A stretch of 57,173 nucleotides of DNA from a virus. Its lineage: Duplodnaviria; Caudoviricetes. The notes beneath the pieces were generated by a model. That model made no database searches. It worked only from the letters and a program-made list of their open reading frames with translations, and had not been told where the DNA came from. The DNA is taken from IMG/VR virus record IMGVR_UViG_3300012347_000287, positions 1 to 57,173 of that record, one strand, 5' to 3'. Shown piece after piece: positions 16,547 through 28,838 of this stretch. The translations under genes were made by a program, and so were the position numbers. The number at the start of each line of letters is the position of its first letter. Position 1 is the stretch's first letter.

Positions 16547-17152
16547 CTAAAAGCCTTTAATTTCCCAGTTATCCCATTCAACTTCTTCGTAGGGAATTGA
16601 GTTTGGCATCCATAGCTGCCCCTCGTGACCCATCCAAGCTTCTGACATGTAAAGATCTCCATCAGATATTTCTTTAATGCCCACCTTGTTTTCTTCGCAC
16701 TCTATAAAATAAATCAAATCTCCTGGATTTGGTTTAATAGAATATCCGAGATTAGAGAAGGTTAGTTCTCCCCCATTGAAGTCATCATTCCAAAAAATCA
16801 ATGACCTGTAGGTTCTGTCTGGCTTTGTTCCGTCCAGCTGTGGATCTACAGACTTTCCGCTAGTGTACCTAGCTATATAATGCTTTGAAAACATTGGTGG
16901 AAGATATTTTTCTTTTTCTTCTAGTTGAACCAGATCATAAAGACCTTTTGAATATTTAGAAAATATATCAAGTATTTCTTTTGGCATCTCTCCACGTGTA
17001 TGAATGTCAAAACTTGCATTATATTTAGAGTATAGGTTATCGTGCAGAGGGACGTGGTCTTCTTTAGTATTAAACTTAATAGTTTTTACATAGTCCTGTA
17101 TTATCAAAACATCGTCTTTAGACATAAAGTTTTTTGCTATATGAATGCTCAC
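16547..17152 (-). CDS. 2OG-Fe(II) oxygenase-fold protein, apparently lacking catalytic residues
   Basis: FWNDDFNGGELTF...KPNPGDLIYF P4H-like motifs, but QLD replaces HxD. Confidence 0.7.
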   Translation of the reverse strand: MSIHIAKNFMSKDDVLIIQDYVKTIKFNTKEDHVPLHDNLYSKYNASFDIHTRGEMPKEILDIFSKYSKGLYDLVQLEEKEKYLPPMFSKHYIARYTSGKSVDPQLDGTKPDRTYRSLIFWNDDFNGGELTFSNLGYSIKPNPGDLIYFIECEENKVGIKEISDGDLYMSEAWMGHEGQLWMPNSIPYEEVEWDNWEIKGF

Positions 17153-17160
17153 TGTTTCTC

Positions 17161-17310
17161 CTATGTGAATGTTGGTCTAGAATGACTATTTTTATTCTTA
17201 TTGCATCTAGAGCAATAAACCATCTCCGCTTTTGAAAATGGACATACCTCTTTATGAACCTTATGCCCCACAAGAAAGCACACGAGCTTCTGCACTTTTC
17301 TGAACCTCAT
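17161..17310 (-). CDS. Small Cys/His (Zn-ribbon-like) protein, 49 aa
   Basis: Hand translation MRFRKVQKLVCFLVGHK...CPF...CSRC; TAATG coupling to the upstream gene. Confidence 0.65.
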   Translation of the reverse strand: MRFRKVQKLVCFLVGHKVHKEVCPFSKAEMVYCSRCNKNKNSHSRPTFT

Positions 17311-17972
17311 TAGTTAAGTGGTATCCAGTGCTGCTCTTGGTGCATCCCAAAAGATTTTAGTTCTTCTAGTGGAAGCACATCGTAAGCTACTGTAATTCTT
17401 GGGCCATCCCAGTTCCAGTCGCCCATTGCGTGTGGATGTCCCATTTCTGACAATACTGCACGGTTATTCTTATTAATATTTTGAACCTGCTTGTCAAAAG
17501 TTATGTAGTGTGTTACAGAGGGCTCGGCAGAAACTGAATAGTAGCCGTGGAATAGTGGTGCCCCAATAGGTCCGTGATCATGCCAGTCTAGCTTTCCATT
17601 GCCAGAATGATTAATATTGAACCATCCCTGCATCATGAATTGCTGAGAGTCGAAGTCTACCCCGTAATATTCACAGGCTTCTCTTACCATTGACGATATG
17701 CCGTCATATAGCTTTCTTATTCCATCGATGTGGAACTGGAACACATTGTATTCTCTCCACTTTATGGTAGATGCACTATTAGAAGATTCCCATAGCTCAT
17801 TCTCTCCCATTGGATCTACCCCAAAGAGTTTAGCCTGTTCGATCTTTTCATATCGATCTTGCAGCTCTTTTGTAAGCAGGTCCAGATCATTATCTAAAAA
17901 TCGCTCGAAGAATTTATGTGGTTGTTTAGATTGACTAACGCTCTTCATGTATGTGTCAAAGTCTGAATTCAT
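17310..17972 (-). CDS. Putative 2OG-Fe(II) oxygenase
   Basis: WFNIN...WHDH...HGYY...HPH...RITVAYD double-stranded beta-helix pattern. Confidence 0.7.
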   Translation of the reverse strand: MNSDFDTYMKSVSQSKQPHKFFERFLDNDLDLLTKELQDRYEKIEQAKLFGVDPMGENELWESSNSASTIKWREYNVFQFHIDGIRKLYDGISSMVREACEYYGVDFDSQQFMMQGWFNINHSGNGKLDWHDHGPIGAPLFHGYYSVSAEPSVTHYITFDKQVQNINKNNRAVLSEMGHPHAMGDWNWDGPRITVAYDVLPLEELKSFGMHQEQHWIPLN

Positions 17973-18019
17973 AACTGTAGCTCCTAAGTGTGTGTATAAA
18001 AATTATACACCATAGACGA

Positions 18020-26716: not shown

Positions 26717-26974
26717 CTACCACTTTCCAATTGGGCAAGAAGCCTTTTCAAGCTTGGTCTTTGCGGCCATGAAGCATCCACAGTTTCTACACTGCTTTGT
26801 TAGCTTAATTAATTCTGGACAAGACTTGCAAATGTCAAATCTTCTAGCTGCCTCTTCATCAGAGGTCCTTTGCTCTTGTGGATTTATCATGTCCCATGGC
26901 TTTACGTCGCCATTAACTAATGAGCCTCCAGTATTCTTAATTAAGTCTTTTAGTTTTTCAACTTTATCATTCAT
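26717..26974 (-). CDS. Small Cys-rich protein (DUF6171-like)
   Basis: ICKSCP...CRNCGCFM..K..L..ASCPIGKW. Confidence 0.75.
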   Translation of the reverse strand: MNDKVEKLKDLIKNTGGSLVNGDVKPWDMINPQEQRTSDEEAARRFDICKSCPELIKLTKQCRNCGCFMAAKTKLEKASCPIGKW

Positions 26975-27015
26975 AGCTTGCCCAAATCTATTAGATAAAA
27001 ATTATACCATATAGG

Positions 27016-28212
27016 CTACTTGTTGTGAACTAGGATATTTCCAGCAAAGAATGTGTCGGTATCTTCACAGTTAAATGAGTATACATCTCTCATTTCTGAA
27101 ATGTAATCTACAGAAGTTACCTCTACTTCAACTACCTGATCTTCAGATACGTACTGAATAAACTTATCTCCAATATAGATGTCTCCAGTGTGCTTCCACT
27201 GCCAGATGCCGTCACGGCTTACAAGCATTGGCTGCTCTAGAGACATTCTGGTGCTAATGTCACCATTGATATACATGGTGGTTGGCTTTTCATATTCATA
27301 CTTTGCAACTACTAGGGTAGCAAGGGTATCTATATTAGTTAGGTTACTAGATGTAGCAGACATGAAGGTTTGAATGTTTTGATCTACAAGCTCATCCCAT
27401 GTCATAGCTAGGACATAGTCTCCAACCTGAACATCCTTTGCCTTGACATATGTTTTTTGTCCCTCGGCTGTAACAACGATTATCTCAGTGTCCCCGTCGA
27501 CACACTGGTTAGCAGGTGTTCCTGGAGGCCAATTTTCTGATGGAGTAACTGGCACTGGTGTAGTTGGAGTAGTAGGTGTGGTTGGAGTAGTGGGTGTAGT
27601 GGGTGCTGGTGCCGTTCCACAGTCTCTATATCCGCTAAGAACTGATGATGTAGTCTCGGTGCAGTTAGAATATGTGGTAGTTGTTGTAGTGTAGCATTCT
27701 CTTAGCCCATACCCACCAGAGCAAGAGTCGCAGGTAGTTGAGCTTGTAGAAGAGGTCTGAACGCATCCAGCAGTTCCCCCACAAAGACTTTGGTTTGTTC
27801 TGGTTACTTCGATCGAGCTGCTTTCCATGGCACAATTTGAATAAGAAATTTCTGTAAGCTGTGTACCTGTTTCTAATCCGTTAACGCATGATCCAGACCA
27901 GTCAGTAAAGACTTCACGACTTATTTCAACACAAACTACTGGAGTTCCTCCTCCGCCGCCAGGAGATGGGGCAACGTAAGTATAATACATAAAATTTACG
28001 CTGGTTTCATAATCCACAACCTGTCCAGAGGCAATTGATTGTGAACCAATAAGGTTGTCTTGAGAAGATATTGATGATCCAGTTGGGGTTGAGGTGCCTA
28101 TAGTAAGTCCTGCTGCAGTTATGGCTGCCTCGGCGGCGGTTCTAGAGAGTCCAGAAAGATTTGGAACAGTTGTCATTCCCCTAGATGCAAAAAATCCAAA
28201 TGATCCTAACAT
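27016..28212 (-). CDS. PASTA-like, Cys-rich, PTT-repeat protein with C-terminal Hint domain
   Basis: VPNLSGLSRTAAEAAITAAGL...SQSIASG PASTA-like N-terminus; CVDGDT...AKDVQVGD...VYSFNCEDTDTFFAGNILVHNK*. Confidence 0.8.
   Translation of the reverse strand: MLGSFGFFASRGMTTVPNLSGLSRTAAEAAITAAGLTIGTSTPTGSSISSQDNLIGSQSIASGQVVDYETSVNFMYYTYVAPSPGGGGGTPVVCVEISREVFTDWSGSCVNGLETGTQLTEISYSNCAMESSSIEVTRTNQSLCGGTAGCVQTSSTSSTTCDSCSGGYGLRECYTTTTTTYSNCTETTSSVLSGYRDCGTAPAPTTPTTPTTPTTPTTPVPVTPSENWPPGTPANQCVDGDTEIIVVTAEGQKTYVKAKDVQVGDYVLAMTWDELVDQNIQTFMSATSSNLTNIDTLATLVVAKYEYEKPTTMYINGDISTRMSLEQPMLVSRDGIWQWKHTGDIYIGDKFIQYVSEDQVVEVEVTSVDYISEMRDVYSFNCEDTDTFFAGNILVHNK
27541..27612 (-). repeat. Pro/Thr linker, (PTT)x5 plus PVPVTP
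   Basis: Direct translation. Confidence 0.9.
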
Positions 28213-28220
28213 CTATAGAC

Positions 28221-28838
28221 CTAAACCTTTAGATCGCCAATTAGGATCCACTCGTCTGAATTAACCTTAATAATGGTTGCTCCAGAATACTGTAAAGATA
28301 ATCTTTTAGCCGAGCTCTTGCTTCTAATGGTAACCCCTGAAGCAGGTGCCATAGATACCTCTCCAGCACCCTGTCTAATAATCTGAATAGTGGCTCCAGT
28401 CGGGAATACTCCAGAAGGAACTGTGATATCTACATCAGTAGCTGAGTTAACTAGAACAATAGTTCCAGAGTCGTGTAGAGATAGGGTGTATGCCCCAGTC
28501 TTTGACGAATATCTAGAGTCGTATGCCGAAACCCATCCAGACGATGTGTGATACTGAATCTGATTAATATCATTTCCAGAAGCATCTTGTCTAACGAAAC
28601 AGACTGCACCATTAGTTGGTGATGGAATAGCTGAGTCACGTGTTGCTGGATTCTGAAAATTATTAATTCCAGCTTTTGAATTAACTACATCTTCGAAGGT
28701 TACTGGTGCAGCAAATGAGTGATCTCCAGTCCAGTCGTAATCAGATGAAGTGCTAACGTTTCCTGCTACTGGGTACCAGGTGTCTGTTGGCTCGTCATAA
28801 ATATAAGCTACCTTACCGCTTGTGCTAACTGTTGCCAT
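28221..28838 (-). CDS. Tail fibre-associated protein
   Basis: C-terminal domain (GAYTLSL.D...GAGEV...WILIGDL) homologous to that of 19252..20841; likely start MATVST by TAATG coupling. Confidence 0.65.
   Translation of the reverse strand: MATVSTSGKVAYIYDEPTDTWYPVAGNVSTSSDYDWTGDHSFAAPVTFEDVVNSKAGINNFQNPATRDSAIPSPTNGAVCFVRQDASGNDINQIQYHTSSGWVSAYDSRYSSKTGAYTLSLHDSGTIVLVNSATDVDITVPSGVFPTGATIQIIRQGAGEVSMAPASGVTIRSKSSAKRLSLQYSGATIIKVNSDEWILIGDLKV

Follow-up and report, generated by a model that had tools for sequence, protein, structure and literature searches.

The DNA analysed here, referred to as the window, is a 57,173-bp IMG/VR virus record (IMGVR_UViG_3300012347_000287) with an estimated completeness of ~49%. 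It carries two cassettes on the minus strand, units A and B, each combining a gene for a fibre, a gene for an adhesin that ends in a Hint domain (hintA and hintB, respectively), a gene for a microprotein, and two genes for proteins assigned with differing certainty to the double-stranded beta-helix (DSBH) fold of 2-oxoglutarate (2OG)- and Fe(II)-dependent oxygenases. An earlier reading of these genes (hereafter the sequence-only reading) had described the same five-part unit as occurring twice, and all ten of the open reading frames (ORFs) on which it drew were confirmed as listed below, where P4H stands for prolyl 4-hydroxylase.

Unit A
19252-20841, minus: fibre, 529 aa, with an Mtd_N-type N-terminus (E 8.5e-15) and a C-terminal GDL domain of ~95 aa ending WVVFGDLSA
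18020-19228, minus: adhesin (hintA), 402 aa, with a conserved N-terminal peptide, two FN3 domains, (FSPFGAFG)n, Cys239, Hint, and SHNK before the stop
18518-18626, minus: 24-nt tandem repeat in 4.5 copies (Tandem Repeats Finder), encoding the aromatic/Pro repeat FSPFGAFG directly ahead of Cys239
18023-18514, minus: Hint of unit A, Cys239-Lys402, block B SLTQP, C-terminus His-Asn-Lys (Pfam Intein_splicing, E 1.7e-4)
18036-18063, minus: promoter-like site (11/12 matches) at the 3' end of hintA, with a second TATAAT right behind the stop codon
17310-17972, minus: oxyA1, 220 aa, DSBH oxygenase fold of the 2OG-FeII_Oxy_5 type; HDH, GHPH and RIT invariant
17161-17310, minus: Cys/His microprotein, 49 aa, DUF1660 (Pfam, 26 bits versus a cut-off of 21.4)
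16547-17152, minus: oxyA2, 201 aa, degenerate DSBH protein related to P4H-like oxygenases (PF13640, 17.7 bits, below cut-off)

Unit B
28221-28838, minus: fibre, 205 aa from ATG, with a GDL C-terminal domain ending WILIGDLKV
27016-28212, minus: adhesin (hintB), 398 aa, with a conserved N-terminal peptide, PASTA, a Cys-rich part, (PTT)n, Cys237, Hint, and VHNK before the stop
27557-27605, minus: 9-nt tandem repeat in 5.4 copies (Tandem Repeats Finder), encoding the PTT linker
27019-27504, minus: Hint of unit B, Cys237-Lys398, block B SLEQP (Pfam Intein_splicing 1.2e-6 and PT-HINT 3.2e-3, both below cut-offs)
27001-27029, minus: promoter-like site (11/12 matches, extended -10) that covers the hintB stop codon, ahead of the genes for the microprotein and the oxygenases
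26717-26974, minus: Cys-rich microprotein, 85 aa, DUF6171 (Pfam, 31.5 bits versus a cut-off of 27)
26122-26715, minus: oxyB1, canonical P4H-like 2OG-Fe(II) oxygenase with HxD...H...R intact (PF13640, E 6.9e-17)
25544-26119, minus: oxyB2, 191 aa, probable DSBH protein; 3 sequences share an invariant HxD (HID), later His and Arg

The architecture is thus kept between the units, but homology is limited to three of the five parts, and the other two are only analogous. The C-terminal domains of the fibres share 40% identity over 94 aa (E 3e-18), the Hint domains 31% over 173 aa (E 3e-22), and oxyA2 of unit A is related to oxyB1 of unit B (27% identity, E 5e-9), whereas pairwise comparison of oxyA1 with oxyB2 gave no significant similarity and that of the two microproteins no alignment at all. 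With six DSBH-type genes in four clusters in the window, the chance of finding both Hint genes directly upstream of such a cluster is ~1% by a rough estimate, and the same gene order was seen again in dozens of further contigs, the loci of which are referred to below by L numbers. The best reading of these comparisons is that the cassettes are paralogous copies of a conserved phage module.

The unit A fibre matches tail PHROGs with its C-terminus (phrog_8780, 9.1e-21). The ORF of the unit B fibre reaches a TTG codon at 28859, and its orthologues in L003 and L022 begin at an ATG equivalent to 28838, the start also used by the sequence-only reading. In nearly all loci with upstream sequence present, a GDL-domain protein stands immediately ahead of the adhesin, and L019 and L020 have a single protein of 668-672 aa in which the GDL domain is joined to long Pro-rich linkers and Cys modules. 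Over ~75 aa, the Cys module of this L020 protein shares 50-56% identity (E ~1e-13, composition-corrected) with the module found within the separate adhesins of L012 and L014. A complex prediction for three copies of the unit B fibre with residues 1-95 of hintB scored 0.10 against a mark of 0.32. A further arrangement is found in L068 (1653-7281), where two fibre-plus-Hint-adhesin units, one with a Hint of the Cys1/HN type and one of the Ser type (see below), lie in direct tandem ahead of a single enzyme block.

The fn3 match of hintA (28 bits) and the PASTA match of hintB (29.4 bits) are both above their Pfam cut-offs. Since fn3 was found in 22 and PASTA in 12 of the 46 family members scanned, the two adhesins of the window represent both main cargo types. 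The build of hintA is kept in its orthologues in L004 (86% identity) and L005 (64%). The Pro-rich stretch right before the first Cys of the Hint domain (Cys1), to which the sequence-only reading had drawn attention in the window, proved to be a property of the whole family: in 63 proteins, Pro makes up 24.6% and Phe 23.7% of the 30 residues ahead of Cys1, with tandem repeats such as FSPFGAFG, FFPP, FFAPPG and FTPYS.

The C-terminal Hint domain and its variants

Pfam Hint-type models match both window adhesins with scores below the cut-offs, and the match to Pfam Hint itself (PF01079) is marginal (E 0.09). When 11 Hint regions of the window and of related loci were combined into a profile, this matched inteins in the PDB (E-values from 2.5e-5, for the Pho RadA intein, to 3.4e-4) as well as the solved bacterial intein-like (BIL) domain 2lwy (E 5.6e-5). 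Cys1 is invariant in 14/14 and 5/5 aligned sequences and the C-terminal His-Asn (HN) in both alignments; Cys237, SLEQP and HNK are kept in all 13 close relatives of hintB. In place of Thr-x-x-His, block B of the window proteins reads SLTQP and SLEQP, with a retained Ser and with a Gln that aligns with the His of the Pho RadA intein and of 2lwy.

A family survey with a 5-row Hint alignment against 1.84 billion representative proteins yielded 809 matches with E <= 1e-3, of which 158 have E <= 1e-10 (clusters at 50% identity). One Hint ending at most 8 residues from the C-terminus was found in 116 of the 150 matches examined, and most of the remaining 34 are multi-stretch matches (probably inteins with an endonuclease), longer-tailed proteins or fragments. 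All 63 family sequences that span the junction have Cys1. Among the 116 C-terminal Hint proteins, the penultimate His is present in 103 and the Asn in 101, and block B (S/T-x-x-) continues with Gln in 63, His in 34 and Glu in 19. HN followed by at most 8 residues forms the C-terminus of 97 of these proteins, every one of which has a Lys within that tail (at +1 in 46, +2 in 44, +3 in 6 and +4 in 1), compared with 5 of the 19 proteins without terminal HN that have a Lys among their last four residues. Pfam Intein_splicing is matched at E <= 1e-3 by 21 of 46 family members. For ten clusters that we looked up, all members are metagenomic (ENA, JGI/IMG or Logan) and the only name given is "hypothetical protein".

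Judged by these sequence features, the Hint is a distinct BIL-A-like subclass with Cys1, an (S/T)xx(Q/H/E) block B, and His-Asn followed by a very short Lys-bearing tail. According to definitions in a review (PMC7765530), A-type BIL domains have a C-terminal His-Asn and a non-nucleophilic +1 residue, reside in variable surface proteins, and are expected to cleave rather than splice; by these definitions they are the closest known kind. The phage domains share with them (Amitai 2003; Dassa 2004; 2lwy) profile similarity to the Hint fold, the N-terminal Cys, the C-terminal His-Asn, the lack of Cys, Ser or Thr at +1, and a seat in hypervariable parts of non-conserved surface proteins. Unlike A-type BIL domains, the phage Hint sits at the extreme C-terminus, with 1-8 residues after the Asn and always a Lys among these, its block B mostly has Gln or Glu, an aromatic/Pro repeat always precedes it, and it is encoded beside phage fibre genes. 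The Hedgehog Hog-Hint resembles it in the order of cargo, Cys and Hint at the C-terminal end, with the Hog cargo being released through a thioester according to the same review (PMC7765530), but the sterol-recognition region of Hog-Hint is absent from the phage Hint and the terminal His-Asn of the phage Hint is absent from Hog-Hint.

Three other assignments were considered and rejected. A true or split intein does not fit, as the stop follows the Lys in all relatives, a homing endonuclease is absent and the Hint is complete; likewise, the +1 position is a Lys and then the stop, leaving no C-extein, and the carrier protein is hypervariable. For a pretoxin-HINT polymorphic toxin, nothing lies downstream of the Hint to be released, and for a Hog domain, the protein ends one residue after HN with no adduct-recognition region.

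The ends of related adhesins are diverse. L004 and L005 bear a Hint of the Cys1...HNK kind, and the more distant L023, L024 and L026 have a Cys1 Hint without HN. In L007-L015, the domain behind the (GAF)n repeats is Hint-like, with Ser as its first residue and a block-B His but without HN (Ser type). Over residues 1-237 the L006 adhesin shares 69% identity with hintA, and it stops ~10 residues past the repeat; that of L011 ends in a Cys-rich 20-mer, and 14 further Hint-less adhesin groups were found, many of which end in short tails or Cys-rich knots. Because the C-termini vary and the Hint is optional, the common denominator of these adhesins is a binding domain plus an aromatic/Pro repeat, and this shared core is what a self-cleaving Hint would leave behind.

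Two of these alternative ends stand out. A knot of ~20 residues with 6-7 Cys (C-x3-C-W-x-C-P-C-x2-C-x-C) often ends Hint-less adhesins right after the aromatic/Pro repeat (L011, 7980-9203; L031, L040, L049, L056, L061, L062, L064 and L067) and looks like an alternative "cap" to the Hint. The long (GAF)n runs of L007-L015 (e.g., L013, 10007-11497) have Gly at each third residue as in collagen, with a weak match to Pfam Collagen (E 8.3e-4), and may form a triple helix or a polyglycine-II-like structure.

Cassette enzymes and their linkage to the adhesins

The sequence-only reading had counted two oxygenases per unit, which is too many in terms of catalysis, because oxyA2 appears to be dead and oxyB2 is uncertain. 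The clearest case is oxyB1, which matches PF13640 (2OG-FeII_Oxy_3) at 62.6 bits versus a cut-off of 27 and finds the bacterial prolyl 4-hydroxylases 3itq and 5hv0 in the PDB (E 3e-5); a match to Tet_JBP is weak (E 0.0023; 17.6 bits, far under the cut-off of 34.9). Its listed start, a GTG at 26781, overlaps the DUF6171 gene by 65 nt, and the likely true start is the ATG at 26715 that abuts the DUF6171 stop. In unit A, oxyA1 has no Pfam match, and an atlas search pointed, as a lead, to PF13759 clusters. Its AlphaFold model (8-row alignment; predicted local distance difference test score [pLDDT] 79, predicted template modelling score 0.83) has 3bvc and 2rg4 as best Foldseek matches (template modelling [TM] score 0.57-0.62; E 1.6e-5 and 8.5e-5), followed by ThoJ, the ectoine hydroxylase EctD and proline hydroxylases, with TM scores of 0.4-0.5 for named 2OG oxygenases. 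On the strength of this predicted structure, oxyA1 qualifies as a member of the 2OG-Fe(II) oxygenase superfamily with DSBH fold.

The two remaining proteins are less enzyme-like. In all four members of the oxyA2 family, the His of HxD is replaced by Gln, the distal His by Val, Cys or Met, and the 2OG-binding Arg by Leu (QxD, Val and Leu in oxyA2 itself), from which we infer a catalytically dead paralogue that keeps the oxygenase fold without its iron and 2OG ligands and perhaps acts as a substrate-binding partner. For oxyB2, no Pfam or PDB matches were found; it matches phrog_2954 (5.5e-16) and phrog_3531 (3.1e-4), the latter in common with oxyB1, and hhalign against the P4H-like alignment gave E 0.0037 at a probability of 9% with the HxD motifs aligned, and an atlas score of 0.91 serves as a lead. 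These matches tie oxyB2 weakly to the DSBH superfamily, with which the distances between its HxD, later His and Arg are compatible. Alignment profiles of oxyA1, oxyB2 and DUF6065 proteins had no matches among PDB sequences, and hhalign of DUF6065 and oxyA1 against the P4H-like alignment was not significant. DUF6065 genes are an observation of their own: often two per locus, they are interleaved with oxygenase genes downstream of the adhesin in L023, L024, L027 and L030-L069 (e.g., L030, 9282-10689) and, weakly, in L007-L015, and they are the sole enzyme-like cassette genes beside (GAF)n adhesins of the Ser type.

The microproteins, which look zinc-ribbon-like, recur in relatives. DUF1660 is kept in L004, L005, L006 and L011, and DUF6171, the first gene past the adhesin in many relatives, follows the adhesin or fibre in L003, L019, L020, L022, L026, L027, L031/L069, L070 and L088.

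A second locus with modification genes lies near the end of the window:

56195-57100, minus: PF11397 N-acetylglucosamine (GlcNAc) transferase (Pfam, E 4.4e-20; 72.9 bits versus a cut-off of 21)
55636-56211, minus: second PF13640 oxygenase (Pfam, E 6.7e-11)
54652-55623, minus: GT4 gene, next after the PF13640 gene
53971-54669, plus: Stealth-like gene
52270-52803, plus: sulfotransferase-like gene
51699-52277, plus: third PF13640 oxygenase

The distal glycosyltransferases invoked by the sequence-only reading therefore include a PF11397 GlcNAc-transferase, the ORF of which overlaps that of a PF13640 oxygenase by 17 bp, and in L019, L022 and L027 a transferase of this family and PF13640 genes lie within the cassette itself. 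Judging from this gene arrangement, the pair at 55636-57100 probably belongs to the same modification pathway as the cassettes. Characterised members of PF11397 add GlcNAc to the hydroxyproline of Skp1.

The linkage between enzymes and adhesins was surveyed across 51 units, and in 42 of them a DSBH gene starts at most 3 kb downstream (19/22 with a Cys1-type Hint, 5/11 with a Ser-type Hint and 18/18 without Hint). One set comprised 59 loci on viral contigs that fall into 33 groups at 90% adhesin identity, 31 of them with downstream sequence, and here a DSBH gene was found within 3 kb in 29 of 31 groups (Cys1/HN 10/12, Ser-type 5/5, Hint-less 14/14); the other 20 units gave 9/10, 0/6 and 4/4 for the Cys1-type, Ser-type and Hint-less classes, respectively. 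The profiles used for mapping were partly built from loci that were then mapped, but this does not apply to L030-L088. Within the Ser-type class, adjacent oxygenases are present in 5/5 cases when each repeat unit contains Pro and in 0/6 with Pro-free (GAF)n. Six metagenome loci, the Hints of which are 25-33% identical to those of the window, show the same order, in which DUF6171 and PF13640-like genes come after the Hint protein. The PF13640-like genes number from one (L022 and L026) to five (L024) or six (L023) and are accompanied by PF11397, DUF6065 or epimerase genes.

A lack of linkage to oxygenases among homologues, which the sequence-only reading had named as grounds for abandoning its proposal, was thus not observed. 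What does not hold is its coupling of the oxygenases to the Hint as such, because the Hint-less adhesins have an adjacent oxygenase in 18 of 18 units, so that the enzymes track the repeat-bearing adhesin and not the Hint; the Ser-type (GAF)n clade, conversely, has a Hint-like domain and no such neighbour (0/6).

A scan for sigma-70-like matches over 12500-32000 (19.5 kb) found promoter-like sites in a total number that is not above shuffled expectation (54 versus 46.5), and the two sites at the 3' ends of the Hint genes are the best matches in this region. The -35-like hexamer of the unit B site consists in part of the codons for His-Asn-Lys, and a TATAAT just past the Hint stop is kept in L003, L004, L005 and L026. 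These matches are only a hint that the enzyme block may be transcribed on its own.

Possible processing and modification of the adhesin

We propose that the Hint removes itself from the adhesin and leaves the repeat as a tail, the Pro residues of which are hydroxylated by the P4H-like enzymes, and we put the probability of this overall reading at roughly 0.5. In this scheme, the GDL domain of the fibre (~95 aa) would carry the adhesin, and the Hint would be a single-turnover self-processing domain in which an N-S acyl shift at Cys1 creates a thioester that is resolved by water or by an amine of the Lys tail, together with cyclisation of the Asn. The mature adhesin would then end in the aromatic/Pro tail, an end-state that Hint-less relatives may encode directly. 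P4H-like oxygenases would hydroxylate Pro of the repeats or linkers and the PF11397 transferase, where present, would add GlcNAc to hydroxyproline after the manner of the Skp1 pathway, so that the product would be a hydroxyproline-rich and possibly glycosylated receptor-binding appendage. Taken by itself, self-cleavage by the Hint seems somewhat more likely than not, and for hydroxylation of adhesin or fibre proteins we see the chances as evenly balanced. BIL domains reportedly cleave and even ligate without a +1 nucleophile, as is said of work by Dassa in 2004 and Aranko in 2013. Within the same fibre module, a collagen-like fibre protein (30221-30931; Gly-X-Y, Pro-rich) is of the classical P4H substrate type and constitutes an alternative target of the oxygenases.

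Several observations weigh against this proposal. The N-S acyl shift is normally driven by the block-B His, the most conserved activating residue of inteins. Both window proteins have Gln at this position, and 82 of the 116 family members have either Gln or Glu there, so N-terminal activation may be weak or differently driven; inteins that lack this His and still splice are known. With a mean pLDDT of 50, the AlphaFold model of hintB (14-row alignment) is of poor quality, and the assignment of the Hint fold is for this reason drawn solely from sequence profiles. Two groups with Cys1 Hints, L070 and L075, have no DSBH gene within 3 kb downstream. All units come from related phages, so that the counts are phylogenetically non-independent and shared ancestry, not function, may be why the gene order is kept. 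The islands also hold genes unrelated to fibres, such as class II ribonucleotide reductase and epimerase, and in this respect behave like cargo hot-spots, and G001, a 90%-complete relative, has nine DSBH genes at 11-38 kb, none of them beside fibre genes. The analysis was made wholly from sequence and prediction, and the adhesins and fibres are putative virion proteins. Lastly, hydroxyproline was not detected in particles of chlorovirus PBCV-1 despite its P4H, according to an entry in the reference list of a chlorovirus review (PMC7019647).

The foremost rival explanation is one in which the oxygenase, DUF6065 and glycosyltransferase genes are auxiliary, host-directed or DNA-modification genes that sit beside fibre genes in hypervariable islands and do not act on the adhesin, with the Hint adhesin being a separate matter. 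Besides the ribonucleotide reductase, epimerase and other unrelated genes, this would account for the abundance of DSBH genes elsewhere in these phages (in G001, PF13640 has 7 matches and custom profiles find 9 DSBH genes), for the weak Tet_JBP match of oxyB1 (E 0.0023) and for an enzyme block seemingly under its own promoter, and cyanophage papers class phage 2OG-Fe(II) oxygenases as auxiliary metabolic genes. We nevertheless hold it to be unlikely, if deserving of serious attention, given that the same order recurs in 42/51 units and at two places in the window with Hints as little as 25-33% identical, and that adjacency follows the repeat Pro in the Ser-type class (5/5 versus 0/6). The best family matches, moreover, are protein prolyl hydroxylases and a protein-directed GlcNAc-transferase family, compared with 17.6 bits against a cut-off of 34.9 for Tet_JBP. 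The Hint itself could instead be inert, either as a structural or binding cap that keeps an aggregation-prone repeat soluble and is interchangeable with Cys-rich caps, or as a decaying intein-like remnant. The Gln or Glu in block B (82/116) would agree with this, as would the absence of a homing endonuclease and of anything sizeable downstream to release, and the same repeats end otherwise in relatives (Cys-rich 20-mers, short tails, Ser-type Hints or Cys1 Hints without HN). Yet Cys1 in 63/63 sequences and HN with a Lys-bearing tail in 97/97, across paralogues that are ~30% identical, amount to a constancy of catalytic positions, down to a one-residue "extein", that is hard to explain for an inert domain, and the known splicing inteins without block-B His point the same way; we regard inertness as distinctly improbable.

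Two further possibilities concern the fate of the Cys1 thioester. The C-terminus might be completed through a novel form of protein splicing, with the amine of Lys at +1 or +2 taking over the cargo from the Cys1 thioester and Asn cyclisation freeing the Hint, to yield a hydroxyproline-rich and possibly glycosylated virion adhesin. We consider this a long shot, but if true the tail would be capped by an isopeptide- or peptide-linked Lys or mini-peptide, the reaction would be the first intein-like one with a Lys nucleophile and a one-residue extein, and the product the first extensin-like glycoprotein in a bacteriophage. Still more doubtful is a Hedgehog-like ligation, in which an external nucleophile (a Lys or the N-terminus of the fibre, an amine of the host cell wall, or a lipid) attacks the thioester and the adhesin becomes covalently attached via its repeat tail. 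Hedgehog and BIL proteins have the same order of cargo, Cys and a Hint at the very C-terminus, GDL domain and adhesin are always neighbours and in some phages one polypeptide, and PASTA domains are known from peptidoglycan-binding proteins. However, no adduct-recognition region follows the Hint, the fused forms hang the cargo from the fibre by its N-terminus and hence in the opposite topology, and Hint-less orthologues work without a thioester.

Self-removal of the Hint followed by hydroxylation of the tail would have partial precedents. C-terminal intramolecular chaperone domains are found on fibres and tailspikes such as endosialidase and T5 pb1 (Peptidase_S74). There, too, a C-terminal domain of a fibre protein cuts itself off after its job, but fold and chemistry are unrelated, and no match to Peptidase_S74 was present among the Pfam results for the window proteins. 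Chlorovirus PBCV-1 is said to encode a prolyl 4-hydroxylase (a finding credited to Eriksson in 1999) and also Pro-rich repeat proteins as its likely substrates, the same combination as proposed here; unlike the phages of this study, it is a eukaryotic virus without Hint and without fibre cassette. In the protist Skp1 pathway (PhyA/P4H1, then Gnt1), hydroxylated Skp1 is the substrate of Gnt1 (PMC3515798). The likeness is that a P4H-type gene adjoins a gene for a GlcNAc-transferase of the PF11397 family, whereas the known pathway modifies a single Pro of a cytoplasmic protein, the phage candidates are long tandem repeats of a phage structural protein, and the phages have up to 5-7 oxygenase paralogues in a row.

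The components are all of known kinds, namely BIL/Hint autoprocessing, P4H, hydroxyproline GlcNAc-transferase and accessory proteins of phage fibres. In the literature that we searched, the module was not described, and the work retrieved on inteins, BIL domains, cyanophage auxiliary metabolic genes and Skp1 was unrelated to it. Within this scope, the Hint subclass (extreme C-terminal position, HN-(x)K tail, block-B Gln/Glu) with its aromatic/Pro repeat partner and phage-fibre context appears to be undescribed, and so do the attached arrays of oxygenase and DUF6065 genes.

Receptor-binding proteins of phages are usually viewed as plain polypeptides. If the module does combine self-processing with hydroxylases and glycosyltransferases of its own, some phages chemically tailor their adhesins, which bears on host-range prediction and on how "auxiliary" oxygenases in metagenomes are read. 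The 2OG oxygenase arrays of aquatic phages are a long-standing puzzle for which the adhesin gives a concrete substrate candidate. The Hint subclass is also of interest for its own sake: it is compact (~165 aa), has a one-residue tail and no canonical block-B His, and forms a large family (the 158 clusters above), and it could inform intein chemistry and help to make C-terminal thioesters of proteins.

Genome context of the cassettes

Both cassettes lie upstream of the portal gene on the same strand, inside a run of fibre-like genes that includes Mtd_N N-termini. The structural genes recognised in the window are as follows:

2-3193, minus: tape-measure gene
8237-9388, minus: major-capsid-like protein
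9407-10735, minus: head protease
10793-12427, minus: portal

The portal is 45-48% identical to portals of Streptomyces phages with genomes of 120-134 kb. At the nucleotide level, no match to the whole region was found among deposited phages, and protein searches gave one match in the intein region for hintB and none for hintA, so that no cultured relative appears to carry the cassette. By sequence comparison, the carriers of the module are a large group of uncultured phages of ~100-115 kb that are siphovirus-like and have a portal like that of the large Streptomyces phages. Their contigs share a gene order of fibre, adhesin, variable island, a 1234-aa protein, a 127-aa protein and portal.

In the window, the 1234-aa protein (12823-16527) is encoded between unit A and the portal; it has no family match and is present at 48-83% identity in all related contigs that reach that far. 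The sole plus-strand gene within the minus-strand fibre module (24989-25564) encodes a protein with an NlpC/P60-type peptidase domain and a hydrophobic N-terminus, and it occupies the same place in L003 and L006. Each fibre group is preceded by one of three phrog_1084 paralogues, to which no function is assigned (23833-24219, 29861-30205 and 31038-31427). Elsewhere in the window are genes for an RtcB RNA ligase (48821-49987; E 1.7e-117) and a DUF932 protein (40111-41133).

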